A stretch of DNA of 62,813 nucleotides from positions 1 through 62,813 of IMG/VR virus record IMGVR_UViG_3300030118_004366. One strand, 5' to 3'. Within the stretch, counting starts at the first letter, position 1. Each line of letters opens with the position of its first letter. The translations under genes were made by a program, and so were the position numbers. This stretch comes from a virus. The notes under the pieces were generated by a model. It ran no database searches. It was not told the origin of the DNA and saw nothing but the letters and a program-made list of their open reading frames with translations. Positions 78 through 17,015 of this stretch are shown here, piece by piece.

Positions 78-2482
78 TAGAATGGAAAATCTTGTTGTTC
101 ATCGAGTTCATGTTTGTTTCTAAACCTAATCCACCTGGCGTGCATATCTCTTCCTTCTTCGGGTGCACAGCCATAATGATATAAAGAAAATGCTACAAGC
201 CACTTTGAAAATCTAACCCTGGATACACTCATTCTTGACTTAGGTGCAAAGTCAGGATTGTCTTCAACAAAGTCAGTATACAATTCATTCTTTGGTATCT
301 TACCGCCAACCTTTAATTTTTCATGTATAGGATTGTCTCCTATAACCCCACACCATTCTATAAATTCATGACATGTTTCTGCAGAAAGTTTTCTAATCTT
401 TAAATTAACAAACTCACTCTTCATTAATCCTTTTTCTAAGTAAAGCTGCAGACACTGAATCATATAGTTATCAAACTGACACCACTCTTCATCGTTCCAA
501 TCTCCAAACATAAGTTTACCAAACTCTTCGAGTGGAGTATAATCTTTATTATAATGGTGAGCTAACTCAAGCTCCCACTTACGTCTTTCAAATGATGTAC
601 CTTTTCCTTTGATAGCGTAGTTGGTTGTAATAGTTATCTTAGGTGACTTAGCAAATGGTATCTTGATTGCGTCTTTGTTTTTCTTTTCTAAGGTAAGACC
701 CTCAGTAACAACTGAAAACAATCTTTCAAAATCAAAATGCTTTTTCACATCATCAAAACACAGCACTTGTGTATCTGCACTTACAAGCTGATATGCAAAC
801 GAACGCTCAAAGTTGAAAGACTTTCCGTCAATGACTACAACTTTTTTCATGTGACTCAATCCGTTTACCCACAAACCTTTACCACTACCACCTTCAGGAT
901 TGTCTGAAATCATTTCATCATTCAGTATAACAGCTGGACAATACGCCAGGTTCTTCCAACCGTGAAGCATGTAGCCAATAGTAGAACGCATACTGCTTGC
1001 TCTCTGAATGTCGTTACCACAAATGTTTTGAATAAACTTTTGATAATCACAATCTATACTTTCACAAAGAGCGAAGTCTCTGTCAATAACGTGGTCTTTC
1101 CAAACGTATCCACCAAGGTCTAAGTAATCAATTTGTTTTATGTTGTTGTATGTAATTTCAACAGCTCCGTTTCTATAATACAAGTAAGAAGTATCTTTTT
1201 TATCTTCAATAAAATAAACATCGATAGATGAAAGAAGGGTCAAGAACTCTTCACGAAAGTATCTCGTATGTTCAGCAAAGTAATTATAAACAGATATGTC
1301 GTCGATTTCCAGCAGATAATTAAGTATATAATCTTTGATTTCTTTTTCAGAGGTATGGTCAATGAGGTTGTTAGTAACCTTGACAAAGACGTAATTCTTT
1401 GAACCTTCAGGACAAAATTTATAAAAACCATTCTCTTCTAAAAAGTTTTTGAAAGATATGTGTACAATCTTTATTACACCCTTTTCATTCTTTGTCCAGA
1501 ACTGATGATTACTTTGCTCTTCCTCTAATCTATTAATAACATTCTCTACTAAATTAGGGTCAAGCTCTGTCAACTGAGTTCTTAATTCTTTTTTAGATAC
1601 ACCTCTTTTAAGTTTATGTTTTATCATGTTTACTTTCTCATCATCTTCATAATACTTAGTGCCAAAGTTTTGTAACTGTGCATAAGCTGAATCAATAGTT
1701 CTTTTAATTTCAGAGCGTTTAAACGTAGTGGTTTCAAATCCACCAAGAACATATTCAGCGAGTGTTTTTGTAACTCCGTAATCGTTGAAAGCTGCAGCTA
1801 ATACATAAGCATTGTTGTTTCTTTGACCCTCGCTCATTGGGTATTTCTTTTGCCACCACTTTACTAATATTTCTACAATTTTATTTTCATCAGTAATAGG
1901 TATGGTTTGATTGTCAACATTCTTTATAACCTCATTGTATTCTTTTTCCTCTTGCTTATCCCACACACTTGCGTTCTCATTGATATGTATAAGCGGGTCA
2001 TAGCTTTCATAACACACACGTGATACATTCTTACAAGTCTTATCAAACTGTGGAGAATTAAAATGTTTTTCCAGGCTATTGAAATAACTTACATGATTTT
2101 CTGGGATAGGTGGTATCTTAACAATAGCTTTTAATCCTTTACCCGAAGGCGATATAAATACAGAATAAACATATTTATTTTTTGAAAGTCTTTCTTTTTC
2201 TTGTAACAAATCTCTTTGTGAATCGTAGCCGTCAAAGTCTAAACAAATTAAACCACTATGCTGGCTAAGGGATTTATCATTACGCTTTGTAAATTTACCA
2301 CTGAAACAAATAGCTGGAAGCTTTTGTTTTAAATTATTAATTTTATCTTTATCTTTTTCTTCTCTAATTCTTTTTACTAAATCTTTTGAAGAACCCTCCT
2401 TTATTCTATTTAAAATAACTACAGCTCCCCTATAAAAGGGTTGAGATGTAACCTTTATATCTTTAAATATTGTTATTTCCAT
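77..2482 (-). CDS. DNA primase / SF3-type helicase fusion (BT4734/VirE-N-like primase domain, PriCT-like region, D5/VirE-like P-loop NTPase)
   Basis: 801-aa ORF. It has an N-terminal ..AICFSGKF..HSGLICLDFDGY.. acidic primase-type motif and a central ..NNNAYVLAAAFNDYGV.. region. It also has a Walker A-like NPEGGSGKG and a Walker B-like VLCFDDV. The stop TAA overlaps (TAATG) the helicase start across the window junction. Confidence 0.85.
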   Translation of the reverse strand: MEITIFKDIKVTSQPFYRGAVVILNRIKEGSSKDLVKRIREEKDKDKINNLKQKLPAICFSGKFTKRNDKSLSQHSGLICLDFDGYDSQRDLLQEKERLSKNKYVYSVFISPSGKGLKAIVKIPPIPENHVSYFNSLEKHFNSPQFDKTCKNVSRVCYESYDPLIHINENASVWDKQEEKEYNEVIKNVDNQTIPITDENKIVEILVKWWQKKYPMSEGQRNNNAYVLAAAFNDYGVTKTLAEYVLGGFETTTFKRSEIKRTIDSAYAQLQNFGTKYYEDDEKVNMIKHKLKRGVSKKELRTQLTELDPNLVENVINRLEEEQSNHQFWTKNEKGVIKIVHISFKNFLEENGFYKFCPEGSKNYVFVKVTNNLIDHTSEKEIKDYILNYLLEIDDISVYNYFAEHTRYFREEFLTLLSSIDVYFIEDKKDTSYLYYRNGAVEITYNNIKQIDYLDLGGYVWKDHVIDRDFALCESIDCDYQKFIQNICGNDIQRASSMRSTIGYMLHGWKNLAYCPAVILNDEMISDNPEGGSGKGLWVNGLSHMKKVVVIDGKSFNFERSFAYQLVSADTQVLCFDDVKKHFDFERLFSVVTEGLTLEKKNKDAIKIPFAKSPKITITTNYAIKGKGTSFERRKWELELAHHYNKDYTPLEEFGKLMFGDWNDEEWCQFDNYMIQCLQLYLEKGLMKSEFVNLKIRKLSAETCHEFIEWCGVIGDNPIHEKLKVGGKIPKNELYTDFVEDNPDFAPKSRMSVSRVRFSKWLVAFSLYHYGCAPEEGRDMHARWIRFRNKHELDEQQDFPF

Positions 2483-2943: not shown

Positions 2944-3174
2944 TTATTTAATTTTAATATTACGCTCCAAAATATTCACAGCATTTAGAATGGTTGACTC
3001 CCTTTCCTCTTTGCTCATGTAGATAGTTGGAACTTCTATCCACAATTTTTTATCATCAGTTTTATAACGACGTTTAAACGACTTATAGAACTTCTGTATA
3101 TATGTAATCATTGATGTCGCAAGGCGCATCATTACTAAAAAATTTCTCATAAACTTTAATTGCTTTTTTAACAT
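2944..3174 (-). CDS. Hypothetical small protein (start uncertain; internal ATG at 3111 gives 55 aa)
   Basis: ORF-track entry. It overlaps the 3' end of the exonuclease gene, so the shorter form starting MITYIQ.. is more plausible. It contains CGTTTAAACG (read as ..SFKRR..). Confidence 0.4.
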   Translation of the reverse strand: MLKKQLKFMRNFLVMMRLATSMITYIQKFYKSFKRRYKTDDKKLWIEVPTIYMSKEERESTILNAVNILERNIKIK

Positions 3175-3883
3175 TGTCTTCTCCTTTGTCTATAAACTCT
3201 TGACTCGTAGGGAAAACTTTTAATAACCCATCGTTCTTACCTATAGCCACAAAGACAAACGGTTTACCAAACAACTGCTGGTATATGTAGGCTTGTGAAT
3301 TGTAGCAATAAGCAGAACATGAATGTCTAAACTTGAATATGTCAGAGCTGGTTTTTAAATCTACAACAGCTCCGTCTGGATAATCCATAATAAAAGTCTC
3401 ACCGTCATGCTCAATCTCCAGCTCAAATGGTTCGTGAACCAATACATCACACTTGCCTTTGAACATGTGTCCATGTATTTCTTTTATGTTAGGTACTTCA
3501 TACTCAGTATTAACACCGTATACCAAATCAAATACAGTCCAGTTACTTAACATCTTATCAACCAACTCATCTAACGCTTCCTTTTCTTTTGTCAAAAGGA
3601 CATCGTACTGGTCAAGCTGTTGCTCAATCTTATACTGTTTAAACGCATTGGTTGTTCTTGATGAAGCATTGAATACTGGTATCGTGTCTATCTTTTCTGG
3701 CTCCAGAATTTTTGTATGAAAGTACCTTCCTTGTAATAAGGGTAAAGTCTTTTCTGATTTATTAAAGTCAGTAGGCTTGTAAAGTAATTGTCTGATATTA
3801 GAAGCAGATAAAAACTGCTTTCCAAACTTCCCATAATACTCTGAATCCTTTTGAAGCTTCTTAAGTATCTTACTTCTTTCCAT
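3083..3883 (-). CDS. PD-(D/E)XK (RecB/Cas4/YqaJ-like) recombination exonuclease
   Basis: 266 aa with ..GKCDVLV.., ..AVVDLKTSSD.. (D-x-K) and ..SQAYIYQQ.. (QxxxY) motifs. It is translationally coupled to the annealase gene by a 14-nt overlap. Confidence 0.75.
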   Translation of the reverse strand: MERSKILKKLQKDSEYYGKFGKQFLSASNIRQLLYKPTDFNKSEKTLPLLQGRYFHTKILEPEKIDTIPVFNASSRTTNAFKQYKIEQQLDQYDVLLTKEKEALDELVDKMLSNWTVFDLVYGVNTEYEVPNIKEIHGHMFKGKCDVLVHEPFELEIEHDGETFIMDYPDGAVVDLKTSSDIFKFRHSCSAYCYNSQAYIYQQLFGKPFVFVAIGKNDGLLKVFPTSQEFIDKGEDNVKKAIKVYEKFFSNDAPCDINDYIYTEVL

Positions 3884-4463
3884 TAATAGCTTTCTTGAGT
3901 TTAGTTTTAATGGCAGGAGTTACCTTATACTTTGTTGACAGCTGTGCCACAATGTAATCCAAACCTTTATCTTTATTCTTAGCTACGTACATCAAGACCT
4001 TGTCCCACTTGTCTGTAGTTAATTCAAAGGTTTGCTCCTTCTGAACAGGTTTATCTTTCACTTCTTTCACTTCGTTTAAACGACCTGTGTCCTCCCCTAT
4101 CCATAACGATAAACCAAGGCCGTGCATAGCTATTGCTTTTGCTGTAGCTCTTTGCACTGAATTGTTTACATTGAAAGAATTAAGTTTTGTAAGAGGAATA
4201 GGTCTATTCGCATTATCAAGTATAGGTAGATAATCGATGTGTTCAATACCATTAATAACAATACCAACTTTAACATTTGCAAACTTGCCGTCAGTAAAAT
4301 AGGGCATACCCATTTCATTTTCATACACGATTCTGTTTGCAGTTGGATACTCTTGCTTAACGTAATGCCAAGCCCAAGCCCAAGATAAATAAGGATAAGC
4401 TCCTTTCTTTTCAACCTTATCGGCTACTGAGATTGCACTCAGATTTTTATAAACATTTTCCAT
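3870..4463 (-). CDS. Single-strand annealing protein, Sak/Rad52-like (DUF1071-type)
   Basis: 197 aa with ..PYLSWAWAWHYVKQEYP.. and ..VQRATAKAIAMHGLGLSLWIGED.., which I recognise as Sak/Rad52-like hallmarks. It lies adjacent to the exonuclease gene. Confidence 0.7.
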   Translation of the reverse strand: MENVYKNLSAISVADKVEKKGAYPYLSWAWAWHYVKQEYPTANRIVYENEMGMPYFTDGKFANVKVGIVINGIEHIDYLPILDNANRPIPLTKLNSFNVNNSVQRATAKAIAMHGLGLSLWIGEDTGRLNEVKEVKDKPVQKEQTFELTTDKWDKVLMYVAKNKDKGLDYIVAQLSTKYKVTPAIKTKLKKAINGKK

Positions 4464-4464
4464 A

Positions 4465-4857
4465 TTATAATTTATTAAGTTCTGATTTTAAATTTGTATA
4501 CTTATTAAGTAACGTTTCCCTGCGGTTCTTTAAGTTCTGAATATGCTTATCGTTCTTACGAGTATTCAATTCAGTCTTAATTCTTGATTCAATTATAGCC
4601 AGCTTATGTAAGCAGTTGCTCATGCTAACTTGCGTACAACCCTTACGCCAGCCGTCTCTATAAAAGAAATCATACTCTTCATCGGAACACTCTTTAAAAT
4701 AGTCACCGCCTTTTCCCATGTTGAGTATTTGGACACCGTCTTCAAACTCCTGAATCTTTACACCCCTACCAATAACACTTACACCTTTCGGTAATATGTT
4801 CTTAATACTTTTAGGGTCTTCCAAAGCTTGCTTCATGATATCACTACGTTTAAACAT
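4465..4857 (-). CDS. Hypothetical protein
   Basis: 130-aa ORF tightly packed in the operon. Its start codon overlaps a GTTTAAAC copy (MFKRS..). Confidence 0.6.
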   Translation of the reverse strand: MFKRSDIMKQALEDPKSIKNILPKGVSVIGRGVKIQEFEDGVQILNMGKGGDYFKECSDEEYDFFYRDGWRKGCTQVSMSNCLHKLAIIESRIKTELNTRKNDKHIQNLKNRRETLLNKYTNLKSELNKL

Positions 4858-4858
4858 T

Positions 4859-5164
4859 CTAAACTTTTAAGTTCATTAATTCAATATGATTGACGATAGC
4901 TTTATAATCTTCATCTTCTTCTACCATTTTCTTAGCCTTTTTATAACCATGAATGATAGTCGAATGAAAGACGTCGCAACCATGCTCAGCCATATACCTC
5001 TGTATATAAGAGACTCTAATAGGTCTTTCCATACATAGATAATAAAGCATTTGTCTGGCGTCAACCAAGTCTCTTCGTTTATCTTTATTAAACATCTCAT
5101 CTAATTGAAGATGAAATTGTTTAGCAACCGCGTTTGCATACGCTTCAAATATATCTGCTTTCAT
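4859..5164 (-). CDS. DnaA domain IV-like helix-turn-helix DNA-binding protein
   Basis: 101 aa. ..DLVDARQMLYYLCME..SYIQRYM....FHSTIIHGYKKA.. parallels the DnaA C-terminal ..aRqiAMYL..DHTTVlHA.. pattern. Confidence 0.6.
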   Translation of the reverse strand: MKADIFEAYANAVAKQFHLQLDEMFNKDKRRDLVDARQMLYYLCMERPIRVSYIQRYMAEHGCDVFHSTIIHGYKKAKKMVEEDEDYKAIVNHIELMNLKV

Positions 5165-5514
5165 TATTTAAATTCTTTTAGTTTTTCATTTTTGCCCTTT
5201 ATGAGCATGTCTTTAACTCTATTCTCTTCCTTACGTATTTGCACAAGAAGAAGGATTAAGTATCCCGTAATATCTCTTACAGTATCTACTCCACTTTCGT
5301 CTTTCATAGGGTCACTACCTATATGATTGATAGAAAGCTTTTTTATTCTACTAAGCTTATCGTCTATACGAGCAAGTAATCCTTCTTTAGCAGAAAGTTT
5401 GCTGAAAATTTGTGGTGGATTATTAGCTGTATCACCATAAGCTTTATTCTTTTCAAGTAGAAGAAGAACAACTTCTTTACCTACTTCTTTAATTAAGTCT
5501 TGAGTCTTACTCAT
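5164..5514 (-). CDS. DUF1599 / MazG-like all-alpha protein (nucleotide-modification-associated domain 1-like)
   Basis: 116 aa. ..LEKNKAYGD....ARIDDKLSRIKKL....ITGYLILLL.. fits my memory of the DUF1599 pattern (KN.DYG ... DK..RI). Confidence 0.5.
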   Translation of the reverse strand: MSKTQDLIKEVGKEVVLLLLEKNKAYGDTANNPPQIFSKLSAKEGLLARIDDKLSRIKKLSINHIGSDPMKDESGVDTVRDITGYLILLLVQIRKEENRVKDMLIKGKNEKLKEFK

Positions 5515-5656
5515 AAATAAATTTTAATACGTTATAAATTATAAATGTAAATACCATTACTACAACCACAGCTCCTAAAAATTCCATGAATTTATATTGA
5601 GCTTCGCGCTGTTTAAACGACCTGCCCTGTCTATATCTTTTATCTTCTTCTGTCAT
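5507..5656 (-). CDS. Hypothetical 49-aa protein with C-terminal transmembrane helix (not in ORF track)
   Basis: Hand translation: MTEEDKRYRQGRSFKQREAQYKFMEFLGAVVVVMVFTFIIYNVLKFIYE. It has an ATGA overlap with the upstream ORF and an 8-nt overlap with the downstream gene. Confidence 0.4.
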   Translation of the reverse strand: MTEEDKRYRQGRSFKQREAQYKFMEFLGAVVVVMVFTFIIYNVLKFIYE

Positions 5657-5832
5657 ATAAATAGTGGAGGGTCTTCATCATTCTTTCCCCAAGGAATTGG
5701 AGGAAGCTCAGGCTTTGGCTTTGGTTTCTCTTCTTTATCTCCTTCCTTATCCTTGTCAATAGGAAATAAACTATTAAGAAATCTATCAAAGACTTTGTTT
5801 TGATATTCAAATTCGTTATTAAAGTGTGCCAT
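5653..5832 (-). CDS. Hypothetical 59-aa protein (not in ORF track)
   Basis: Hand translation: MAHFNNEFEYQNKVFDRFLNSLFPIDKDKEGDKEEKPKPKPELPPIPWGKNDEDPPLFI. It is preceded by a -7 box at 5863..5870. Confidence 0.45.
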   Translation of the reverse strand: MAHFNNEFEYQNKVFDRFLNSLFPIDKDKEGDKEEKPKPKPELPPIPWGKNDEDPPLFI

Positions 5833-5862
5833 AGTATTGTATTTAATTTAATTTAATTGCAA

Positions 5863-5870
5863 CAAATTTA
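5863..5870 (-). promoter_or_regulatory. -7 box TAAATTTG (minus strand)
   Basis: Plus strand reads caaattta. It matches TAnnTTTG and lies about 31 nt upstream of the ATG at 5832. Confidence 0.4.
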
Positions 5871-6038
5871 TACATTTTGTTTTAATTTTGCAAACAAACT
5901 GACAAATTTATAGACCTCATGTTTAAACAGATACTTGCCAGAAGCTGGACAATAATAGCTGTACACTTTGTCTTGAACCTTCACAACTTTTTGACCAGAA
6001 GCCTTGCTTCTCATTTCAAATGGTAACATATCCTCCAT
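5868..6038 (-). CDS. Hypothetical 56-aa protein (not in ORF track)
   Basis: Hand translation: MEDMLPFEMRSKASGQKVVKVQDKVYSYYCPASGKYLFKHEVYKFVSLFAKLKQNV. It has a TAATG overlap with the upstream gene and contains GTTTAAAC. Confidence 0.4.
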   Translation of the reverse strand: MEDMLPFEMRSKASGQKVVKVQDKVYSYYCPASGKYLFKHEVYKFVSLFAKLKQNV

Positions 6039-6271
6039 TAGTAATAAGGTTTATTTTCTATTGCATAATCCCTAACGTCTTCTTCTAAATCATCTTTAAC
6101 ATAATCCCAGAAAAAATCTGTTATCTCAAAGCCGTCGACTAATACTCTTAATATTGTCAGCTCATCTTCTGGAGGTTGTTCCCAAGTTCCATTGTCCCAA
6201 TAATATTCATAATCAACTGCTACATAATAGCTGTCGTATTCTTTGCAATATGTTCCGCTATACTTACTCAT
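6038..6271 (-). CDS. Hypothetical very acidic, aromatic-rich small protein
   Basis: 77-aa ORF rich in D/E/Y/W, with overlapping stop and start codons with its neighbours. Confidence 0.6.
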   Translation of the reverse strand: MSKYSGTYCKEYDSYYVAVDYEYYWDNGTWEQPPEDELTILRVLVDGFEITDFFWDYVKDDLEEDVRDYAIENKPYY

Positions 6272-6738
6272 AGTTGTAATGGTTGTACGTTTAAACGATG
6301 TATAATCTCATGCTCTATCTCATCGTATTGTTTGTTGAAAAAATCTTGAGCGTCCTCAGTGTATTCTAAAGTGTCTGAATCATTATCTGCATAAGTCATG
6401 TGACCAAACTTTGCTTCGGTTACTCTGTTTGCAAGGTGACATATCACAGAAATAAAATCTGAATTGTCTACCACCCGCTCGTTTAAACGGACTTCAATAT
6501 CATAGTCATCACGGAGTCCTTCAATGAGGTGAACCGTGTACATGTTTTCGTGGACGTGGTCTAATAGTTCTTGTATCTGACTTAAGTCATCAGAAGCTAT
6601 CCAACCTTGACCCCACAGCATGTTAGCTACATTAGATAGTTCATTGAAGCCAACGAAATGATACGTGCTCATGTATCGTTGGTCTAAGTCTATACTAATA
6701 TAGTGTTCGCTTTTGTTTTTCATTTTTGCTTTTGCCAT
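6268..6738 (-). CDS. Hypothetical acidic protein
   Basis: 156-aa ORF containing two CGTTTAAACG copies (read as VRLNE and HRLNV). Confidence 0.65.
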   Translation of the reverse strand: MAKAKMKNKSEHYISIDLDQRYMSTYHFVGFNELSNVANMLWGQGWIASDDLSQIQELLDHVHENMYTVHLIEGLRDDYDIEVRLNERVVDNSDFISVICHLANRVTEAKFGHMTYADNDSDTLEYTEDAQDFFNKQYDEIEHEIIHRLNVQPLQL

Positions 6739-6739
6739 A

Positions 6740-6961
6740 TTATTTTGATTTTAAATTATACTTTTCTCTTGCTATAATATCAATAGATTCGAAGATGGTT
6801 TCATATACCGCCTCGCAACTAAGGGCGTCGTTTAAACACTCCCATGCCGTGTCGTCATCGCACTTGTAATTTTGCTGTACGTCTTCAACATGCCATAAGC
6901 TATCAACATATCCCTTGTCTTTTAATTGTTTTCTAAGTTCTTGAGTTTCTTTGTATCCCAT
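6740..6961 (-). CDS. Hypothetical acidic small protein
   Basis: 73-aa ORF with AAAATTTATTAT directly upstream of the ATG. Confidence 0.6.
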   Translation of the reverse strand: MGYKETQELRKQLKDKGYVDSLWHVEDVQQNYKCDDDTAWECLNDALSCEAVYETIFESIDIIAREKYNLKSK

Positions 6962-6971
6962 ATAATAAATT

Positions 6972-7343
6972 TTAAAGGTTATAAAAATATTCTGTCTCGT
7001 CGCGATGTTTAAACGCTATCGCTTGAGCTTCAAGTCGTTGGTCTGGGTGAACGCAAATGAATTTGATTCTCATAAAAAGATTTGATGAGTCACCCCACAC
7101 ACAACGATACTTAATCTTTGCTTGCCGTAGTTTCTTGCAGAAGCTATCGACTTCATTGTTCGCAGTCTCATACCATTGGTCTGTAAAGTTACAACCACCA
7201 ACAGCATTGACTGGCTCCAACCATGAACGCCAAGCGTCCAGCCTGAAGACTTTTGTTTGTGTAGTATTAATATGCACTGGCTTGTCTTTTTTGGTTATCC
7301 TCATAGCTACATGAAGACCAGAAACAGTCAGCATGAAAGCCAT
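6972..7343 (-). CDS. Hypothetical protein (start uncertain)
   Basis: 123-aa ORF. It overlaps the 3' end of 7267..7593 by 77 nt. An internal Met (MRITKK..) would shorten the overlap. Confidence 0.55.
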   Translation of the reverse strand: MAFMLTVSGLHVAMRITKKDKPVHINTTQTKVFRLDAWRSWLEPVNAVGGCNFTDQWYETANNEVDSFCKKLRQAKIKYRCVWGDSSNLFMRIKFICVHPDQRLEAQAIAFKHRDETEYFYNL

Positions 7344-7593
7344 TGGTTAAGTTATGATAGTATCTCTTCAGCTTTTCATTCAGCGCGTTTAAACGGTCTA
7401 TGCTTTTCCAGTCTGGAACATTGCAATCACCGTCAACTCTTCCCAGCATACCACCACCAAGGTAGTTTTGATATGCCGTCATCTTTCCGTTTGGGTAGCC
7501 CCACTTTTTTAAGTCTATCTCAATTCCGCCACCGCGTGGGCTAACTTGTTGACGAATTATAGACTGTTCTATTCTCTTAACTCTCATAGCCAT
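7267..7593 (-). CDS. Hypothetical protein
   Basis: 108-aa ORF in operon context. It contains CGTTTAAACG (read as DRLNA). Confidence 0.55.
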   Translation of the reverse strand: MAMRVKRIEQSIIRQQVSPRGGGIEIDLKKWGYPNGKMTAYQNYLGGGMLGRVDGDCNVPDWKSIDRLNALNEKLKRYYHNLTNGFHADCFWSSCSYEDNQKRQASAY

Positions 7594-7895
7594 ACGTTTG
7601 CTGATTTGATTTTATTTGGGTCTACGTCCCTTTCAATTATCTCTGTGCTTACGCCTTGAACTGATGAGTCTTTAAGCTTATAGCATTTAGTTAGCTGAAT
7701 AAACTCTACGACTTTGCCCTGACGTTTAGTCGAGCTTAGATGTTCAATAGCTTCTTTTAAAGTATCAAAAGACTTAGTCTTTTTGTTTGGGTTCTGCCAT
7801 GTGTTGGCATGAGTCAAGGCTTTACCTTTGCCGTTATGAATTTCATAATGGTCAACGGTTTCCATGATTGTCCCGTAAATAATGTTCTGTTCCAT
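7584..7895 (-). CDS. Hypothetical protein
   Basis: 103-aa ORF with AAAATTTAT directly upstream of the ATG. Confidence 0.6.
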   Translation of the reverse strand: MEQNIIYGTIMETVDHYEIHNGKGKALTHANTWQNPNKKTKSFDTLKEAIEHLSSTKRQGKVVEFIQLTKCYKLKDSSVQGVSTEIIERDVDPNKIKSANVWL

Positions 7896-7951
7896 ATAAA
7901 TTTTATTTAATTATGCGTGGCGTTTAAACGGGTGCCACACTTTACCCTTAG

Positions 7952-8034
7952 TGGAAGGTGGGGGACTCGAACCCCCGTGGTTCACTTACGAGCTTTCGCT
8001 ACAAGGAACTACACGCACCATGCTCCAACCTACG
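7952..8034 (-). ncRNA. tRNA-like RNA lacking an anticodon loop (degenerate tRNA or tRNA mimic)
   Basis: Minus-strand 83-mer. It has a canonical T arm GGGGG-TTCGAGT-CCCCC (7960..7976) and a 5/7-paired acceptor stem CGTAGGT/ACCTTCC plus discriminator A. U8 is present, and the D arm GAGC-ATGGTGCGTGTA-GTTC carries A14, GG and A21. The anticodon arm position is occupied by an 8-bp bulged stem capped by GAAA. Confidence 0.45.
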
Positions 8035-8080
8035 GACTGACAAAATTTATACACAAAAGAACAGTCCGTTTAAACGTCTT

Positions 8081-8365
8081 CTACAATCTATCCATGAAGT
8101 CTTGTGCTAACTCCATTGGATTTGTAACATCTTCAAGTGCCCAGAACTCGATGAACTTTTCAGCGTCATCATACACGCCTTGAAATATTTGTTCATCGGT
8201 ACGCCAACGCTTGCGCTGGTCTGCACTCATGGTTTTGACTTTACCATTTTCAAGGAAATTAAATCGACTAAAACTTGTCGCTCCGTAATTAAAGAACACG
8301 TCTGAAATACTGAACGAAGTTGAGGTCATCATTAACTTACCTTTGTTTTTACTTATTGTATTCAT
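8081..8365 (-). CDS. Hypothetical protein (94 aa from MNTISKNK; the ORF track extends it to 8431)
   Basis: The ATG at 8365 is preceded by AAAATTTAAGTAT, the start context shared by neighbouring genes. Confidence 0.55.
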   Translation of the reverse strand: MNTISKNKGKLMMTSTSFSISDVFFNYGATSFSRFNFLENGKVKTMSADQRKRWRTDEQIFQGVYDDAEKFIEFWALEDVTNPMELAQDFMDRL

Positions 8366-8430
8366 ATACTTAAATTTTAAAATTCGTCTGCAATATACAA
8401 AATGTTTTTTAATTGTGCAAGCTTTGTACA

Positions 8431-8562
8431 TTAAAATATTATTTTTATTTGTTCACCCCGTTTAAACGCACGCGACTTTTTTTCGGCGATGAGCTTGTTT
8501 AAACGTCGTTGCTCTCTCGCTTTATAAACCGCGTGCATTATTTGTCTTTCTTTTCTGTGCAT
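8431..8562 (-). CDS. Possible 43-aa basic peptide (not in ORF track)
   Basis: Hand translation: MHRKERQIMHAVYKAREQRRLNKLIAEKKSRAFKRGEQIKIIF. It has TAATG overlaps at both ends and contains two GTTTAAAC copies. Confidence 0.3.
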   Translation of the reverse strand: MHRKERQIMHAVYKAREQRRLNKLIAEKKSRAFKRGEQIKIIF

Positions 8563-8807
8563 TAGTTTCGTCTTACGGTATAGTCTTCATTAATTAAAGT
8601 GAAGACATCGCTCCATACTTCAGACGGGACTTCAGCTTCATTCATACAATCGTTTATTCCCTCGAACAATCCGTCAACTGCCTTATCGTCAATCCCTCTT
8701 TGTTCTACGTGGTTATACCAGTGATGAGCTTGCTCCTCTTTACTCCATTCTTCAAAAGGAACGCCTGCTTCTTCTTCGGCTTCTAAAATGTGATTTGGTT
8801 TTTCCAT
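8562..8807 (-). CDS. Hypothetical highly acidic small protein
   Basis: 81-aa ORF rich in E/D, with AAAATTTATATT upstream of the ATG. Confidence 0.6.
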   Translation of the reverse strand: MEKPNHILEAEEEAGVPFEEWSKEEQAHHWYNHVEQRGIDDKAVDGLFEGINDCMNEAEVPSEVWSDVFTLINEDYTVRRN

Positions 8808-8833
8808 AATATAAATTTTAAATTAAACTTCGT

Positions 8834-9058
8834 TTAAACGTCCTCTATCTCATCTGAGTTAGTCAACATGCTTTCCGCAATTTCAAGAGACACAGACTCC
8901 AGAACTTCATAATAAATATAGTCACCGCCTTGGTGCATTTGCAATCCTGATTTGTCTGCAACCTTTTCAATGTGCGAAACTAATCTGCTTATCAAAGTGT
9001 AGTCACCGTCAATAGCGTCATAGATTTCTTTGGCTACTTTTCTTTCAATTTCTGCCAT
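8834..9058 (-). CDS. Hypothetical acidic small protein
   Basis: 74-aa ORF. Its stop codon TAA lies inside a CGTTTAAACG copy. Confidence 0.6.
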   Translation of the reverse strand: MAEIERKVAKEIYDAIDGDYTLISRLVSHIEKVADKSGLQMHQGGDYIYYEVLESVSLEIAESMLTNSDEIEDV

Positions 9059-9085
9059 AATATAAATTTTAAATTAATAACTCCT

Positions 9086-9105
9086 GCACCGCGTTTAAAC
9101 GGTGC
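9086..9105. repeat. Intergenic GC-armed palindrome around GTTTAAAC (module copy C)
   Basis: The sequence is GCACC-gc-GTTTAAAC-GGTGC, followed by aacgctttgagcttagtg. Confidence 0.8.
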
Positions 9106-9147
9106 AACGCTTTGAGCTTAGTGTTCTATTTATAGTCGCTCAATCGA

Positions 9148-9645
9148 CTATTCATCATCACTCCAATCATCGTCCCATTCATACTGGTTGTACTCATTGT
9201 ATTTAACATCTTCCCAATCACCCAGAGTTGTCTCTTTCTTTCTGCACTTATTTAAATCATTAAGTAAATCAATAAAATGACCAACAGCCATGGTATAATT
9301 TACAATGCGTTTAAACGACCCGCTTTTCAGCATGTCCTCTGCGTCTTTCCACATGTCGTACTCACATTGATACAGTTCTGAAGGGTCACCCCAATTAGAA
9401 TCCGCGCTGTGTAACCAATAGATATCATTACCTTGAGCGTCTGATTCTCTATCAATTACAAGAGTATCTGAACCAGTGTAATAACCGCTATTATGGTAGA
9501 GACAATAATCTTTTTCTCTATCTCCTAATAGTTCCCATTGCCACGGGCTGAAATTTCTTTTTAATTCTGCAACGTTGAGACTGCTACTGTCTTCACAGTT
9601 CCAACCGTTTTTTGTTCCGTAAATTTTTAATTCTTTTATAATCAT
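9148..9645 (-). CDS. Hypothetical acidic, Trp/Tyr-rich protein
   Basis: 165-aa ORF with C-terminus ..WDDDWSDDE. It contains CGTTTAAACG (read as SFKRI). Confidence 0.65.
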   Translation of the reverse strand: MIIKELKIYGTKNGWNCEDSSSLNVAELKRNFSPWQWELLGDREKDYCLYHNSGYYTGSDTLVIDRESDAQGNDIYWLHSADSNWGDPSELYQCEYDMWKDAEDMLKSGSFKRIVNYTMAVGHFIDLLNDLNKCRKKETTLGDWEDVKYNEYNQYEWDDDWSDDE

Positions 9646-10055
9646 AAGTTTTGAATTTTAGTTAATCTCTCTAATTTGTCCGAGTCGTTTAAACGCTCCC
9701 AGTCTGAGGGTGGTTGCCAATTTGGAATCTTGCTCCTCATTGTAGCAAATACAATCCTTTCTTTATACTTGACCGCGTCTGCTGTATCCTCCTTTTTATC
9801 ATTCATTAAATCCCCCATTAATAAAAAGGCTTTCATTGAATTTAGTATTGGGTCTGACTCTTTCTCTTTTTGGTCTTGCTTGCTCAAAGTCAAATTTAAT
9901 TCTCTGGCTACATAGTTAATATGTTTTTGAGTAGTTACTGACCAGTAGCCTAATTGAATCAATTTTGAGCCTTCAATAGTTGCTACATGTGTGCTGTAAG
10001 AAAATACTTTATTTCCTTCAACTTTTAGATTTTTATTATATCTTTTTAATTTCAT
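9642..10055 (-). CDS. Hypothetical protein
   Basis: 137-aa ORF with ..VFSYSTHVATIEG..LGYWSVTTQKHINYV... It has an ATGA-type overlap with the upstream gene. Confidence 0.65.
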   Translation of the reverse strand: MKLKRYNKNLKVEGNKVFSYSTHVATIEGSKLIQLGYWSVTTQKHINYVARELNLTLSKQDQKEKESDPILNSMKAFLLMGDLMNDKKEDTADAVKYKERIVFATMRSKIPNWQPPSDWERLNDSDKLERLTKIQNL

Positions 10056-10080
10056 ATTGTATAAATTTTAGTTAAACAAC

Positions 10081-10102
10081 GGACAACGTTTAAACGCTGT
10101 CC
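10081..10102. repeat. Intergenic near-palindrome around GTTTAAAC (module copy A)
   Basis: The sequence is GGACAA-CGTTTAAACG-CTGTCC, followed by cgctttgggcttaatg. Confidence 0.8.
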
Positions 10103-10123
10103 CGCTTTGGGCTTAATGCCTTT

Positions 10124-10333
10124 TTAACGTCGCCCAAACGACTCACGTACCAGCCCAATAATTAACACTGAGCTAACGTACATTAAGAATCCAACGAACA
10201 CGACAAAAGCGAACATTGTCAATCCTTGCTCTAAGGTCTTGACACTATCCAGCATGTGAATAATTACCCGACCTATAGCCGTGAGTAGAAAGAACCACGT
10301 CACGGCTAAAATTGATGTTTGAATTTTCTTCAT
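10124..10333 (-). CDS. Small membrane protein (two predicted TM helices)
   Basis: 69-aa ORF with two long hydrophobic stretches (AVTWFFLLTAIGRVII and FAFVVFVGFLMYVSSVLIIGL). Confidence 0.6.
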   Translation of the reverse strand: MKKIQTSILAVTWFFLLTAIGRVIIHMLDSVKTLEQGLTMFAFVVFVGFLMYVSSVLIIGLVRESFGRR

Positions 10334-10334
10334 A

Positions 10335-10712
10335 TTAAATTAATTTAGGTTTATAACTTGAGTGATTTGAAGGAAGAGTTGTAAAAGTATCATAACCCTT
10401 AGTCCATGAATCAAATTTCTTGATTAAGTTCTGTTGCTCCTTGTCCTCTTTTTCAGCCTGTCTTTTGGCTTCTTCTTCCTCTTCTTCTTCCTCTCTTCGC
10501 ATTTGCTCTTCATTGTCGTCCCAACGCCTTAGAGCGTCTTCAATTTCGTGCTTCATGGCCACGATTTCTTGACAATGTCCGAGCAGGTTTTCCAACCCGT
10601 CTCGCTCGTATTGGCTCATGTCTGTTGACATGTCGCCGTTCTGAATTGCTTCCTCGCAATCGCTTAAGTCTCTCGAAGTATTTTCGAATCGACAATATGA
10701 CATATTTCCCAT
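10335..10712 (-). CDS. Hypothetical protein with poly-Glu tract (start set at MGNMSYC)
   Basis: The ATG at 10712 is preceded by AAAAATTTATACT. The ORF-track extension to 10760 would run through the intergenic palindrome. It contains REEEEEEEEAKR. Confidence 0.6.
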   Translation of the reverse strand: MGNMSYCRFENTSRDLSDCEEAIQNGDMSTDMSQYERDGLENLLGHCQEIVAMKHEIEDALRRWDDNEEQMRREEEEEEEEAKRQAEKEDKEQQNLIKKFDSWTKGYDTFTTLPSNHSSYKPKLI

Positions 10713-10740
10713 AGTATAAATTTTTAAAGTTAAACAACCT

Positions 10741-10758
10741 GAGCCGTTTAAACGGCTC
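10741..10758. repeat. Perfect 18-bp palindrome GAGCCGTTTAAACGGCTC (module copy B)
   Basis: Read directly from the sequence. It is followed by aacgcttagggcttaatg, as in copies A and C. Confidence 0.9.
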
Positions 10759-10770
10759 AACGCTTAGGGC

Positions 10771-10899
10771 TTAATGTACTATTTCAAGACGCCCTAACGT
10801 CCCCAAACCTTTCACGAATTGACGCCATTCTTTGCGCGTTAGTTTAGCGCGCTTACGTGCTTTCGTTTGTCTGTTTGGCTTTGAGATTTTTAATATCAT
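10771..10899 (-). CDS. Possible 42-aa basic peptide (not in ORF track)
   Basis: Hand translation: MILKISKPNRQTKARKRAKLTRKEWRQFVKGLGTLGRLEIVH. AAAATTTATACACT lies upstream of the ATG. Confidence 0.35.
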   Translation of the reverse strand: MILKISKPNRQTKARKRAKLTRKEWRQFVKGLGTLGRLEIVH

Positions 10900-10916
10900 A
10901 GTGTATAAATTTTAGT

Positions 10917-10944
10917 TAATAAAAGGGGCGCGTTTAAACGCCCC
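10917..10944 (-). terminator. Hairpin plus T-run after the SprT-like gene (stem built around GTTTAAAC)
   Basis: The minus strand reads GGGGCGTTTAAACGCGCCCC followed by TTTTATTAA. Confidence 0.5.
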
Positions 10945-10951
10945 ATGTCAT

Positions 10952-11581
10952 TTAGTAATCTTGTTCGTTGTCCATTAGTCCACCGCAACCCGTAGGGCAT
11001 TGTATGTGGTCTGGAAGCATGTTAATATTCTTCCTTGACAATCTGAAACTGAAATCGCAACAATTACAGCTTACCTTCAAATTTCTCACCCCGTCCTTAC
11101 GTCCGCCCGTCATGACCTTAGCATGAGGGAACAAGCCTAACGGCTTTACAACGTTGGCTTTTAGATAATCTTCAAGCCATTCTGTTTCAGTTGTCGCGGT
11201 CATTTTACCTTTCAACCCTACAGCTGTAGCGCAACGTTTAAACGGTGCCCCGTGACCGCTTTTGCAATCATCAACGGCATGAACTAATTCATGAACAAGA
11301 ACGCCTAAAATTCTCAGCGTACCGCTTAAGCTGGTGCCGTCTAAATATGGGGTGATATTTACTTGATTAATTCCACTGTCACAAAGACCCGTTGGAAAGC
11401 ATTGTCCCAACACCTTAACGCCTTTACCGTGTTTTGTTCTGTTTCCTCTGGTTGCCCAGCTTACAGATAATTGAACCTTTGGCACTGTGTACCCTTTGTC
11501 CTTGAAGAGCCCCTTTCTTAGTATGTCTGTTGCATTTTCTAAGTAAGTTTCTCTGTTAGATTTTGACTTTTTATGTCTCAT
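10952..11581 (-). CDS. SprT/Wss1-like zinc metalloprotease with C-terminal zinc ribbon
   Basis: 209 aa with HExxH in ..LVHELVHAVDD.. and a Cys cluster ..CNCCDFSF...CPTGCGG... It is the first gene downstream of the early promoter. Confidence 0.8.
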   Translation of the reverse strand: MRHKKSKSNRETYLENATDILRKGLFKDKGYTVPKVQLSVSWATRGNRTKHGKGVKVLGQCFPTGLCDSGINQVNITPYLDGTSLSGTLRILGVLVHELVHAVDDCKSGHGAPFKRCATAVGLKGKMTATTETEWLEDYLKANVVKPLGLFPHAKVMTGGRKDGVRNLKVSCNCCDFSFRLSRKNINMLPDHIQCPTGCGGLMDNEQDY

Positions 11582-11609
11582 AATGTATAAATTTTGTATT
11601 AATTATGTA

Positions 11610-11617
11610 CAAATATA
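11610..11617 (-). promoter_or_regulatory. Early-arm promoter -7 box TATATTTG (minus strand)
   Basis: Plus strand reads caaatata. It is an exact TAnnTTTG match about 29 nt upstream of the ATG at 11581, at the head of the leftward arm. Confidence 0.55.
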
Positions 11618-12053
11618 GTACAATTCTATTAAAAAACAATAGCCAAACGAAAATATATTTTCATGCACCTGCCAACCTGCTTGTAACTTGCTGACGTTCA
11701 ATGACTTAGCCTGTTGAAAACTTTTATATTTTTTTTATATTTTGTTTTGTCTTTTGATTTATCGGGCGGGCATAACGGGGGAAATCTCTTTTCCTCTTCA
11801 ATTAAAAAACGTCAAACCTTCCCCCGCCCCTCAGCTCGTTTAAACGTTCAGACCCTCACCACGTTTAAACAATGCGCCCGCTTTTGCGGTCAACCTTGAC
11901 CCCGTTTAAACGCTGTAGAAAAAGCTAAAAAATCTGAGAAAAAATTTTTTTATTTTGCTTTGACCGACAAAATATTTTGACTTTCTGTTAGGGGGGTGGC
12001 GAACGTATAACGGGGTATTACCCTCAACCCCAAGATATCTAATAAAATTTTAT

Positions 12054-14767: not shown

Positions 14768-15211
14768 TCTATTTTCTTGGTTTATTTTTTTCATGTAATT
14801 TCTGTACACCTTATCTCTATACTTAACATCATGTTTAAACACTGGGTTGTTTACTGAGTTCTCGGGAATATCTTCACCATTTAACTTAGCATAAACATTA
14901 CTTATCATTCTTTTGGCCTGAAACGTAAGTTCATACAATGCAGCTTCATTTCCTTTTTTAGGTCTCCACTTATGTATCCAACCTTTTTTAATTAAATCAT
15001 AAAATCTATTTGTATTCCAAGACATCAACTCATTGTATTCTTCAAACTTAGTTTTGGTAAATAGATGTTCGCTGTATAAAAATAACATCAGTTCTAAATC
15101 ACCCGTTGTTATATTATATTTGCGTTTTGCCCAATACTTAATTACTTTCCAATATTTTAAATAATCATGTTCAGGCTGCTTACGTGTAGTGTTTCGTATG
15201 ATGATAGGCAT
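14762..15211 (-). CDS. Hypothetical basic protein, possibly a winged-helix DNA binder; lone leftward gene inside the rightward arm
   Basis: 149-aa ORF with its own -7 box at 15246..15253. Its stop abuts the groES stop. It contains a GTTTAAAC copy at 14833. Confidence 0.6.
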   Translation of the reverse strand: MPIIIRNTTRKQPEHDYLKYWKVIKYWAKRKYNITTGDLELMLFLYSEHLFTKTKFEEYNELMSWNTNRFYDLIKKGWIHKWRPKKGNEAALYELTFQAKRMISNVYAKLNGEDIPENSVNNPVFKHDVKYRDKVYRNYMKKINQENRL

Positions 15212-15234
15212 AAATTATATTAGATTAAATTATT

Positions 15235-15253
15235 TATCTTTGTTACAAAGATA
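15235..15253. promoter_or_regulatory. 19-bp palindrome TATCTTTGTTACAAAGATA holding two back-to-back divergent -7 boxes
   Basis: TATCTTTG lies on the plus strand (15235..15242) facing 15266, and TATCTTTG on the minus strand (15246..15253) facing 15211. Confidence 0.55.
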
Positions 15254-15265
15254 TAATAAAATCAA

Positions 15266-15403
15266 ATGGCTCGTAAAAATGTAAGTACGTATGTATTTCG
15301 TTCTCGAAAAAAAAGACCTGGGGTACATTCAAAAAACAGACATACGAACCAAAAGAGCGGAAAGTATTATACAGGAACTAAATATAAAGGCCAAGGAAGA
15401 TGA
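15266..15403 (+). CDS. 45-aa highly basic peptide (not in ORF track)
   Basis: Hand translation: MARKNVSTYVFRSRKKRPGVHSKNRHTNQKSGKYYTGTKYKGQGR. Confidence 0.45.
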   Translation: MARKNVSTYVFRSRKKRPGVHSKNRHTNQKSGKYYTGTKYKGQGR

Positions 15404-15570
15404 GTAAACTATCATTAAGAAAACCAAAGAAGGGAAGTAAAATTTGTCCAGCAGGAATAGCTTGGGCTAAAAGAACTTTTGATACTTATCCAGGAGCTTA
15501 TGCAAATATGGCTGCAAGTAAGTATTGTAAAGACCCAAACTATGCTAAAAAGGCAAAAGGGAAAAAATAA
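15400..15570 (+). CDS. 56-aa basic protein with two-Cys motif (not in ORF track)
   Basis: Hand translation: MSKLSLRKPKKGSKICPAGIAWAKRTFDTYPGAYANMAASKYCKDPNYAKKAKGKK. It has an ATGA overlap with the previous ORF. Confidence 0.5.
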   Translation: MSKLSLRKPKKGSKICPAGIAWAKRTFDTYPGAYANMAASKYCKDPNYAKKAKGKK

Positions 15571-15594
15571 TTGTAAATATTAAAATTAAAAATC

Positions 15595-15888
15595 ATGATG
15601 AAAAAACCTATGCTTAATGCCATACAGAAAGTTAAAATGTCCATGGCAATGAAATCAAAAAATCCCAAGATGAATCCTGGGTTTGACTCTTTACCAAAAG
15701 AAGTTCAAAGTAAAATTATGAAAAAGAAAGCAAAGCTTTCTATGAAAAAGAAACCTAAGATGGCTATGAAAAAGCCAAAGGTAGGTATGAAAAAAGTTCC
15801 TAAAGGAGACATGACAATGCCAAAGATGGCTATGAAAAAACCTGCTTTGATGGGAAAGAAACCTAAAATGGCAATGAAAAAGAAATAA
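15595..15888 (+). CDS. Lys/Met-rich repeat protein (PKMAMKK repeats)
   Basis: 97 aa with 32 Lys and 19 Met by my count. The motif (K)PKMAMKK(K) recurs four times. Confidence 0.6.
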   Translation: MMKKPMLNAIQKVKMSMAMKSKNPKMNPGFDSLPKEVQSKIMKKKAKLSMKKKPKMAMKKPKVGMKKVPKGDMTMPKMAMKKPALMGKKPKMAMKKK

Positions 15889-16232
15889 TGCCTTTTAAAT
15901 TAAAAACATTAGGACAGGTATTAGATTTTAGTGACAAGTATTCGACAGGCGATTATATCGTAAAAGAAAAGAAACTTGGCAAATACACTTTGGGTGAAAT
16001 AAATCCAAACGGTGTGATTGACATTGAAAAAGATATGTCACCTGCTCTAAAAAGAAAAGCTGTAAAACATGAGGTAGACCATTTGTATCAAATGAAAAGA
16101 GGAGAGATGAGGTTTGACCATAATAATTATTATTATAAACCCACACCATATTCACCAATACAAGTTATACCTTCAAGTAAAATAGACCCTCACGATAGAA
16201 GTCTACCGTGGGAACAAGATGCACATAAATAA
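15888..16232 (+). CDS. Hypothetical protein with HExxH motif
   Basis: 114 aa containing ..AVKHEVDHLYQM.. Its start overlaps the previous stop. Confidence 0.55.
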   Translation: MPFKLKTLGQVLDFSDKYSTGDYIVKEKKLGKYTLGEINPNGVIDIEKDMSPALKRKAVKHEVDHLYQMKRGEMRFDHNNYYYKPTPYSPIQVIPSSKIDPHDRSLPWEQDAHK

Positions 16233-16474
16233 TGGGTGAATTAAAAAAATGGAGAGAGCAAAACTGGGTACGCATAGGTCGTGATGGAAAAATCAAAGGA
16301 CCCTGTGGAACTTCCAAGAATAAAAAAAATCCAGATAGATGTTTGCCGATGTCTAAAGCAAGGTCTTTATCAAAAAGACAATTAGCTAAAACAGCTCGAA
16401 AGAAAAAAGCTGCTGGTAGAAAAGGAAAACAAGTTGTTCCAAACACCCCAGCTGCAAAAGTAAGAAACTCATAA
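16232..16474 (+). CDS. Small basic protein (..GPCGTSKNKKNPDRCLP.. motif)
   Basis: 80 aa. It resembles small basic proteins I recall from marine phages and giant viruses. That recollection is not verifiable here. Confidence 0.55.
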   Translation: MGELKKWREQNWVRIGRDGKIKGPCGTSKNKKNPDRCLPMSKARSLSKRQLAKTARKKKAAGRKGKQVVPNTPAAKVRNS

Positions 16475-16755: not shown

Positions 16756-16768
16756 AAAAATATATTAT

Positions 16769-16776
16769 TATATTTG
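16769..16776 (+). promoter_or_regulatory. -7 box TATATTTG
   Basis: The context ttattatatttg lies 29 nt upstream of the ATG at 16805. Confidence 0.5.
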
Positions 16777-16804
16777 TATTTATATTAATTTAAAAAAAAA
16801 AGTT

Positions 16805-17014: not shown

Positions 17015-17015
17015 T

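Follow-up and report, generated by a model that had tools for sequence, protein, structure and literature searches.

An 8-bp word arrayed along a phage early operon recurs with a SprT-like gene across unrelated phage lineages

The early operon and its array

The window analyzed here is the whole of IMG/VR virus record IMGVR_UViG_3300030118_004366 (positions 1 to 62,813), a stretch of 62,813 nucleotides that resembles a whole phage genome (~63 kb; G+C content, 34%), with virion genes in its rightward arm and many small, family-less open reading frames (ORFs) in its leftward arm. Two elements of this DNA concern us, namely, the 8-bp word GTTTAAAC, a strict palindrome identical to the PmeI site, and the gene for a 209-amino-acid (aa) SprT-like product (10952-11581, minus strand; phrog_6361, unknown function), which is the first gene of the leftward early operon and itself holds one copy of the word, at 11236. 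Along this operon, 26 copies form a dense array (3072..11911), starting at 3072, 3637, 4074, 4848, 5611, 5921, 6289, 6481, 6830, 7007, 7387, 7922, 8068, 8460, 8497, 8832, 9093, 9309, 9687, 10088, 10746, 10932, 11236, 11838, 11863, and 11904, and 18 of them have the extended 10-bp form CGTTTAAACG. Both figures agree with those of an earlier sequence-only reading of this DNA. The last three copies, spaced by 25 and 41 bp, make up a triple cluster (11838..11911) in the divergent control region, where they precede the SprT-like start codon by ~260-330 bp.

One further copy lies in the primase gene (1717..1724 within 77-2482, minus strand) and three in other leftward genes, at 60921, 62588, and 62673, the last of which had been placed at 62683. 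The remaining copies are sparser (14833..58463) and start at 14833, 19657, 22549, 24738, 31083, 31659, 33314, 36302, 46781, 50493, 56545, and 58456; most of these are common only to the window and its closest relative, L001. The rightward arm (12001-60400) thus holds 12 copies rather than 11, one of which (14833) sits in the minus-strand gene 14762-15211, and the window holds 42 rather than 41. More than half of the copies in the window are coding.

Selection acts on the exact word

Dinucleotide shuffles of the window yielded 2.73 ± 1.67 copies of GTTTAAAC (maximum, 7) compared with the 42 observed, and the word is the most frequent of all 8-mers in the window. Its 10-bp form occurs 21 times versus 0.04 expected. 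The by-eye expectation had been about two to three copies of the 8-mer and far fewer than one of the 10-mer. Under Markov models of order 1 and 3, the expected number is 0.4-0.9 for positions 3000-12000 and ~2 for the rightward arm, both well below the counts given above. For a codon-aware null, synonymous codons were shuffled 1,000 times among the 23 early-arm genes, a procedure that keeps the proteins and the codon usage; it left 0.82 ± 0.87 coding copies in the early arm (maximum, 4) compared with 15 observed. Chance, composition, and codon usage are therefore rejected as the origin of the array, since neither the shuffles nor the third-order Markov and codon-aware models reproduced the counts.

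Peptide contexts that permit the word, [C/R/S/G]-L-N or x(G)-F-K-[L/P/H/Q/R], carry it in 15 of 16 instances in the early arm, in 4 of 4 in the other leftward genes, and in 11 of 25 in the rightward arm, and the early arm has 3.6-fold more such contexts per codon than the rightward arm. Both stop-free frames of the word are in use inside ORFs (xLN and FK), and gene 8834-9058 ends on a stop codon provided by the copy at 8832; this bears out the frame independence noted from the sequence. The one-mismatch variants of GTTTAAAC are not enriched (54 versus ~58 expected, with only one in 3000-12000), indicating that all eight positions matter and that near-misses have in effect been turned into the exact word. 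Spacing in 3072-11236 is more even than random (coefficient of variation, 0.51 versus 0.94; P = 0.0002), and the largest gap is 774 bp.

The array is kept only in relatives that carry the SprT-like gene

With the primase as query, 80 related viral contigs were fetched, and up to 10 kb of early arm was taken from each. Motif-rich relatives are L081-L086, whose primases are 94-98% identical to that of the window, and L112 (73%); relatives with 0-2 copies are L110 (94%), L087 and L113 (87%), and L088-L091 (~82%). Upon alignment of 27 window copies to the relatives, the exact 8-mer was found to be kept in the SprT-positive L081, L083, L084, L085, L162, and L163, even where a flanking base shifts from C to T or from G to A, whereas the same homologous positions have diverged in the SprT-negative L110, L087, L113, and L088. 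At the primase site 1717, for instance, SprT-positive relatives show CGTTTAAACG and SprT-negative ones CATTTAAGAA, ACTTTAATAA, and similar sequences; sites 3637 and 4848 read CTTATAAGTC and TGTTCACAAG, respectively, in SprT-negative relatives. Conservation of the motif in relatives, a mark by which the sequence-only reading would have known a functional array, thus holds in the first group and fails in the second, although the genes are homologous. Retention of the 8-mer beside varying flanks, together with the codon shuffles, upholds its view that selection is on the nucleic acid and not on a peptide.

The SprT-negative genome represented by L164 plus L110, which come from one contig, is syntenic with the window, and in it 173 bp stand in for window positions 11608-10204, where the SprT-like gene is accompanied by a 42-aa ORF, one pistol ribozyme, and a 141-aa ORF. 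The stretch 11902-11718 has no match in the SprT-negative relative; the triple cluster is kept in the SprT-positive L081, L162, and L163. No other enriched word was found in place of GTTTAAAC in the SprT-negative early arms. Among 184 same-lineage control loci, the 4 with the SprT-like gene are all motif-rich, and 174 have neither gene nor array; the other 6 are motif-rich without the gene, and each of them ends before the position where the gene would lie. This pattern of presence and absence indicates that the sites are kept across the whole arm of homologous genes only in company with the SprT-like gene. Selection for the exact 8-bp word is strong and position specific, and it depends on the presence of one gene.

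The candidate readers named in the sequence-only reading fared differently from its general idea. An operator-like array for a DNA-binding protein remains the best description of the dispersed sites, but its proposed readers do not fit: the two DnaA-C helix-turn-helix (HTH) proteins have homologs in tens of motif-free loci (e.g., 87% and 59% identity in L110), and L164, which lies on the contig of L110 and has 0 copies, encodes a homolog of the MarR/SarA-like product of 14762-15211 at 88% identity.

Word and gene predict each other across lineages

A homology-free scan of the viral collection for three GTTTAAAC copies within short distances returned 115 stretches, among them many unrelated contigs whose G+C content is 0.41-0.51 and whose arrays are dispersed at 1.5-4.7 copies per kb. 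Of all window proteins, only the SprT-like product has homologs in the unrelated contigs of this triple scan, and its family is also the one most widely shared by them. ORFs of at least 40 aa from 64 motif-rich loci were then clustered by BLAST and hidden Markov model-to-sequence searches. The loci sort into six lineages with several members each plus three singletons, groups that have fewer than four gene clusters in common with one another. Of the 9 groups, 8 include the SprT-like family, and the other clusters reaching five or six groups were only antisense-ORF artefacts and a generic TOPRIM primase domain. In this clustering, no recombinase, nuclease, methyltransferase, or restriction gene covaries with the arrays.

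The reverse test employed 80 loci that had been fetched solely by homology to the SprT-like family. Significant enrichment of GTTTAAAC was found in 41 of them, led by L339 (38 copies versus 0.6 expected) and L374 (35 versus 0.7). A further 14 loci, all high-GC and actinophage-like, are significantly enriched in the variant GTTTACAC (4-18 copies versus ≤0.1 expected); the other 25 were not significant, but most of them are short and still have the word in first rank. Arthrobacter phage Maureen, whose SprT-like protein is gp49, holds 17 copies of GTTTACAC versus 0.19 expected, and Arthrobacter and Pseudarthrobacter loci hold 3-8 copies versus ~0.07 expected. The array word therefore recurs in phages with G+C contents of 0.32 to 0.73, taking the form GTTTACAC above ~0.6, and its pairing with the gene is repeated across at least six otherwise unrelated phage lineages. 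A search for a conserved neighbor of the SprT-like gene yielded only lineage-specific ones, the top clusters being antisense ORF artefacts. Two loci show further enriched words, i.e., CGAGCTCG in L340, which resembles Microbacterium phage Zeta1847 (50 copies versus 9 expected), and GTTATGAC/TGGTTATGA in L334 (15 versus 0.5).

The sequence-only reading had also considered targets of a nuclease, nickase, or DNA modification of the PmeI/MssI type, and the core is a PmeI site and a strict 8-bp palindrome. Nothing was found in support of this alternative, which we regard as extremely remote: no methyltransferase, restriction enzyme, or nickase was seen among the scanned window ORFs, many of which are without any family match, no such gene covaries with the arrays, and the actinophage variant is not palindromic.

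The SprT-like gene heads a site-rich domain

Site density was summed over the low- and mid-GC loci by position relative to the SprT-like gene. It is <0.4 copies per kb at distances beyond 1 kb upstream, 1.17 in the final kb ahead of the start codon, and 1.85 in the first kb from the gene onward; values of ~1.0 or more persist as far as 9 kb downstream, and the 9-10 kb bin has 0.67. The gene heads a site-rich domain in the window as elsewhere. In many lineages, an array copy lies 16-75 nucleotides (nt) upstream of the gene's own start codon, and one marine lineage shows TTG(C/T)GTTTAAAC-N11 followed by a -10-like hexamer. Intergenic GTTTACAC copies of actinophages keep a fixed, lineage-specific distance to start codons (21-22, 24-34, or 35-39 nt) and sit within promoter-like TTGCGC-N17-TANNNT contexts. 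Flanks of the word carry no information beyond ±1, which argues that the word itself, and not a longer promoter, is the unit. We also rejected GTTTAAAC as a fixed promoter element in view of these uninformative flanks and of its distance to the conserved TAAAATTTATA...ATG start region, which varies over 12-22 nt.

The arrangement of the copies could be taken to indicate Chi-like or cassette-boundary sites for shuffling small early genes, or iteron-like origin sites. Many copies lie exactly at gene junctions; in lineage 2 (L374 and L339), many coincide precisely with gene ends and give Val-stop (GTT-TAA). Clusters of 3-6 copies with a spacing of roughly 35-60 bp occur in L193, L257, L255, L197, L207, and others, and those of L193 are spaced by 43-44 bp, ~four helical turns, resembling iteron or cooperative-binding arrays. 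In the window, genes for a Sak annealing protein and a PDDEXK nuclease lie in the arm, and GC-rich direct repeats adjoin the triple cluster. Such a role in recombination or replication is nevertheless distinctly improbable, for Sak and PDDEXK homologs are found in motif-free relatives too, the sites occupy fixed positions in conserved genes instead of marking mosaic joints, and no recombinase or nuclease covaries with the arrays.

Pistol ribozymes carry the word in their P3 loops

Several intergenic copies had been noted as 18-22-bp palindromes with GC-rich arms. For four copies, the arms have a specific identity. Three belong to pistol ribozymes (Rfam RF02679; gathering score, 34.5 bits) on the minus strand at 10075..10143 (61.7 bits), 9078..9149 (60.0 bits), and 10733..10802 (58.0 bits), in which the copies at 10088, 9093, and 10746, respectively, form the apex of the P3 hairpin. 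All three matches are full-length and above threshold, with P1, the pseudoknot, P2, and P3 in place. The fourth copy (10932) is the loop of a terminator-like GC-rich hairpin (10925..10944, minus strand; GGGGCGTTTAAACGCGCCCC and then TTTTATTAAC) directly past the SprT-like stop codon, which was identified by a consensus scan only.

Among 12 pistol copies, the P3 stems covary, and GTTTAAAC occupies the P3 apex on these covarying stems in 11 of the 11 pistols of SprT-positive relatives. The lone pistol of the SprT-negative L110 has CCCTTAGGGG in its P3 loop and no GTTTAAAC. Since catalysis survives deletion of the P3 loop (PMC4604425), this loop offers unconstrained positions, which selection has used to carry the word. 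Compared with the class as described (RF02679; PMC4604425), the three intergenic elements of the window are regular pistols, and adjoining phage genes is common for the class; what sets the SprT-positive phages apart is the co-option of a functionally free loop for a DNA word, a SprT-negative relative having a different loop. The relatives L081, L162, L163, and L110 have 1-3 pistols each. In the window, the ribozymes lie 24-28 nt upstream of early-gene start codons, and their predicted cleavage would split a polycistronic early RNA into units with short 5′ leaders.

The hairpins raise the question of whether the word acts in RNA, being displayed in loops of early transcripts, together with the pistols, for processing, stability, or protein binding. 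Besides the three P3 loops and the terminator-like loop, the concentration of copies in one transcription unit would suit this explanation, as would the orientation of the asymmetric actinophage variant GTTTACAC (95 sense and 47 antisense copies, versus ~0.05 expected per locus), a 2:1 sense bias that recognition of double-stranded DNA does not explain. Yet coding copies of GTTTAAAC are without complementary arms, antisense copies of GTTTACAC are far over expectation as well, and the actinophage variant cannot form a hairpin because it is not a palindrome. We therefore consider an action in RNA very unlikely. With both orientations enriched and the coding copies devoid of arms, recognition of double-stranded DNA is the simplest reading.

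The SprT-like protein and its relation to the array

By its motifs and modeled fold, the 209-aa product is a divergent SprT-like protein. It contains an HExxH motif (VHELVHA) and a C-terminal Cys-rich zinc ribbon, and it matches PF10263 with 16.7 bits (E value, 0.0068), under the cut-off of 25.6 bits; 45 of 57 family members match this profile at an E value of ≤0.01 (best, 1e-8). The 57-sequence alignment A2 shows no variation at H97, E98, and H101, and HExxH plus a further invariant His is present in the window protein and most of A2. Several array-bearing lineages, including those with the densest arrays, have lost HExxH (e.g., IAQLCRT, VAMLCHT, and ILPLLKV). The AlphaFold2 (AF2) model of the window protein has a predicted local distance difference test (pLDDT) score of 89, and its Foldseek neighbors in the viral library are predicted SprT-like proteins only (best E value, 4e-13). 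A PDB sequence search with the protein gave no meaningful match, and it has no NCBIfam or PADLOC match and no anti-defense annotation. Pfam scans of the window protein and 56 relatives gave SprT-like and a few zincin/zinc-finger families; the N-terminal single-stranded-DNA-binding domain of ArdC was not found among them.

We propose, with the case for it about evenly balanced, that the GTTTAAAC arrays are sites read by the SprT-like protein and most likely serve as an operator or roadblock array for the early operon; both binding and function are inferred. The HExxH/zinc-ribbon protein would bind the word directly on double-stranded DNA, and binding would set or time expression of the early operon. 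The three clustered upstream sites, like the promoter-overlapping sites of other lineages, could act as operators, and the intragenic copies could be roadblocks through which early transcription shuts itself off. Because HExxH has been lost in lineages that keep dense arrays, the conserved activity would be site recognition rather than proteolysis. The array and the SprT-like protein together point to an undescribed protein-and-site system.

Several observations weigh against this proposal. We know of no SprT-like protein that reads a DNA sequence, and the AF2 model has no PDB neighbor at an E value of <1. Of the 22 motif-rich loci of the triple scan, 8 have no SprT-like gene within the fetched stretch, probably through truncation, since other members of their lineages have the gene. 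Microbacterium phage Brahms and Bordetella phage FP1 have a family member and no array copies; Escherichia coli phage ep3 has only four copies of GTTTAAAC, of which one precedes the SprT-like gene by 20 bp; and ~60 chromosomal homologs, mostly from Polynucleobacter and 33-37% identical, are without arrays. The array-less homologs from Polynucleobacter and other Burkholderiales are L388-L463, which comprise isolates and metagenome-assembled genomes. Given Brahms, FP1, and the chromosomal homologs, the link between word and gene holds for phage-borne subfamilies and not for every member of the family. Finally, a "coverage" function would be equally consistent with the evenly spaced sites and the enrichment across the genome, and it is only from the placement of the sites that we infer a regulatory role.

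The homologs without arrays also lend something to the idea that the SprT-like gene merely travels with the array and that the true reader is a phage protein that is very short or evolves quickly, an RNA, or a host factor. The ORF clustering took only ORFs of at least 40 aa, a further point against our proposal, and the 1.4-kb segment lost from the SprT-negative genome carried, besides the gene, the 42-aa ORF, a pistol, and the 141-aa ORF. We judge this idea rather improbable: the association spans phages from those of Actinobacteria to low-GC aquatic ones, the lineages share no other family, the neighbors of the gene differ between lineages, and a host factor cannot account for presence and absence among close relatives.

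A coverage function is the core of the main alternative, in which the SprT-like protein, as a DNA-dependent metalloprotease like Spartan or ArdC, would anchor itself to the sites and clear away or cut host proteins that occupy the early DNA as it enters. Its targets could be silencers, restriction enzymes, other defense complexes, or covalent adducts, and dense, evenly spaced sites would provide coverage rather than regulation. The fold and family are SprT-like, HExxH and the further invariant His are kept in the window protein and most of A2, the gene is the first of the early operon, no gap exceeds ~775 bp, and a weaker enrichment of GTTTAAAC extends genome-wide. There is also a precedent in ArdC, a DNA-binding metalloprotease that lets conjugating plasmid DNA evade hsdRMS restriction in the recipient (PMC7213743). 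Still, we find a DNA-anchored protease unlikely, as HExxH has been lost in whole lineages with the densest arrays, no ArdC N-terminal domain, PADLOC match, or anti-defense annotation was detected in the searches above, and the arrays lie largely within one operon instead of covering the genome. In its broadest form, which we hold to be similarly doubtful, there would be a widespread system in which a SprT-like protease, or a pseudo-protease in some lineages, has turned into a sequence-specific reader of an 8-bp word, which phages of Actinobacteria and of low- and mid-GC aquatic hosts place at saturating density along the gene's own operon; at its most far-reaching, the protein would be a DNA-anchored protease that clears or cleaves host proteins such as silencers or restriction and other defense complexes on the phage DNA expressed first. 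Catalytically dead lineages might then, with no better prospects than the rest of this idea, keep a purely steric version of the function.

Comparison with known systems

A reader-and-site array of the kind we propose invites comparison with the stoperators of Cluster A mycobacteriophages (L5 gp71 type), which likewise comprise tens of dispersed copies of a short word, including copies in transcribed regions and operator copies at a promoter, and have a phage-encoded reader that varies together with the word between related phages (PMC9283540, PMC6550527). The window resembles them in its many dispersed copies (42, with 26 in a 9-kb early operon). Stoperators, however, are 13-bp asymmetric sites that are mostly intergenic and whose orientation follows transcription; the word described here is an 8-10-bp palindrome or, when asymmetric, occurs in both orientations, and an orientation following transcription was not seen. 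Their reader is an HTH repressor of temperate phages, whereas the protein associated with the present array is zincin-fold SprT-like and encoded first in the site-bearing operon. No HTH immunity repressor emerged as the reader in the window; its HTH and MarR-like candidates are present in motif-free relatives, and no integrase was found among the scanned ORFs.

The SprT/Spartan (SPRTN)/Wss1 proteins and ArdC share with the window product an HExxH zincin core and a zinc-binding C-terminal module, and they are DNA-associated (PMC5127644, PMC7213743); ArdC is needed by a plasmid entering a recipient with an hsdRMS restriction system (PMC7213743). None of them is tied to a genomic site array, many members of the present family are without the catalytic motif, and the ArdC N-terminal domain was not found in it. 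These known proteins respond to DNA structure, i.e., single-stranded DNA or junctions, and are not known to respond to a sequence word. The 17-bp palindromes of Cluster O mycobacteriophages, like the conserved inverted repeats (CIRs) to which the phiC31 repressor binds, are also multicopy palindromes scattered over genomes and thought to be protein binding sites. They are longer and mostly intergenic, and each is confined to one phage group, whereas here one 8-mer recurs across G+C contents of 0.32 to 0.73 together with one protein family. Searches of open-access literature text on the word, on SprT-like proteins in phages, and on repeats of actinophages, including Arthrobacter phages, turned up no earlier description.

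If the proposed reading is true, it would assign a function to genes annotated as "SprT-like protease" in well over 100 cultured phages (164 records matched) and frequent in viromes, add a new fold to the sequence-specific DNA readers, and reveal a logic, regulatory or protective, that phages can carry from one host phylum to another. The strength of selection can be gauged from the filling of nearly every fitting codon context and from the co-option of ribozyme loops for the word. As word and gene each predict the other, the pair helps to delimit early operons in uncultured phage genomes. A bench test is possible with Arthrobacter phage Maureen, which carries gp49 and its 17 copies and has a culturable host.

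Other features of the window

The remaining leftward genes with recognizable products, all on the minus strand, encode a helicase (61551-62813), the BT4734-like/PriCT primase that occupies 77-2482, the PDDEXK protein (3083-3883), the Sak annealing protein (3870-4463), and the two DnaA-C HTH proteins (4859-5164 and 60654-61064). On the plus strand lie a GroEL homolog (12569-14167; phrog_5725; E value, 3e-134), two GroES/Cpn10-like genes (14510-14767 and 30638-31240), the endolysin and holin (21096-21955), and the terminase and portal (31450-36131). ARAGORN called no tRNA in the window. A search for a virion RNA polymerase of the N4 or crAss type with hairpin promoters found none, the 2,144-aa protein giving no PDB sequence match and only a PHROG of unknown function. 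The window ends precisely at the ATG of the helicase ORF (62811-62813; 1-76 at the other end), and the contig IMGVR_UViG_3300030012_003842 (L081/L161), whose primase is 98% identical, is 62,467 bp, almost the length of the window, which is probably a complete, circularly permuted genome.

Early genes are without Shine-Dalgarno sequences; instead, many of them share TAAAATTTATA(N2-4)ATG at their starts. Positions ~11610-11617, about 26 nt ahead of the SprT-like start codon, hold TATATTTG, which fits the Bacteroidota -7 promoter box, TAnnTTTG. This match hints at a possible Bacteroidota host. A GC-rich island (11740-12020) adjoins the triple cluster and has repeated CCCCGTTAT and A/T runs; it could be a replication origin or a structured leader. 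At ~7950-7985 on the minus strand, GGGGGTTCGAGTCCCCCACCTTCCAC resembles the T-arm and acceptor 3′ end of a tRNA or transfer-messenger RNA (tmRNA) (Rfam tmRNA 3′ end; E value, 0.005), for which ARAGORN calls no gene, and it may be an attachment-site remnant. Directly after it comes a pistol-like 3′ half, composed of CACTAAGGGTAAAGTG and a hairpin that holds the copy at 7922.

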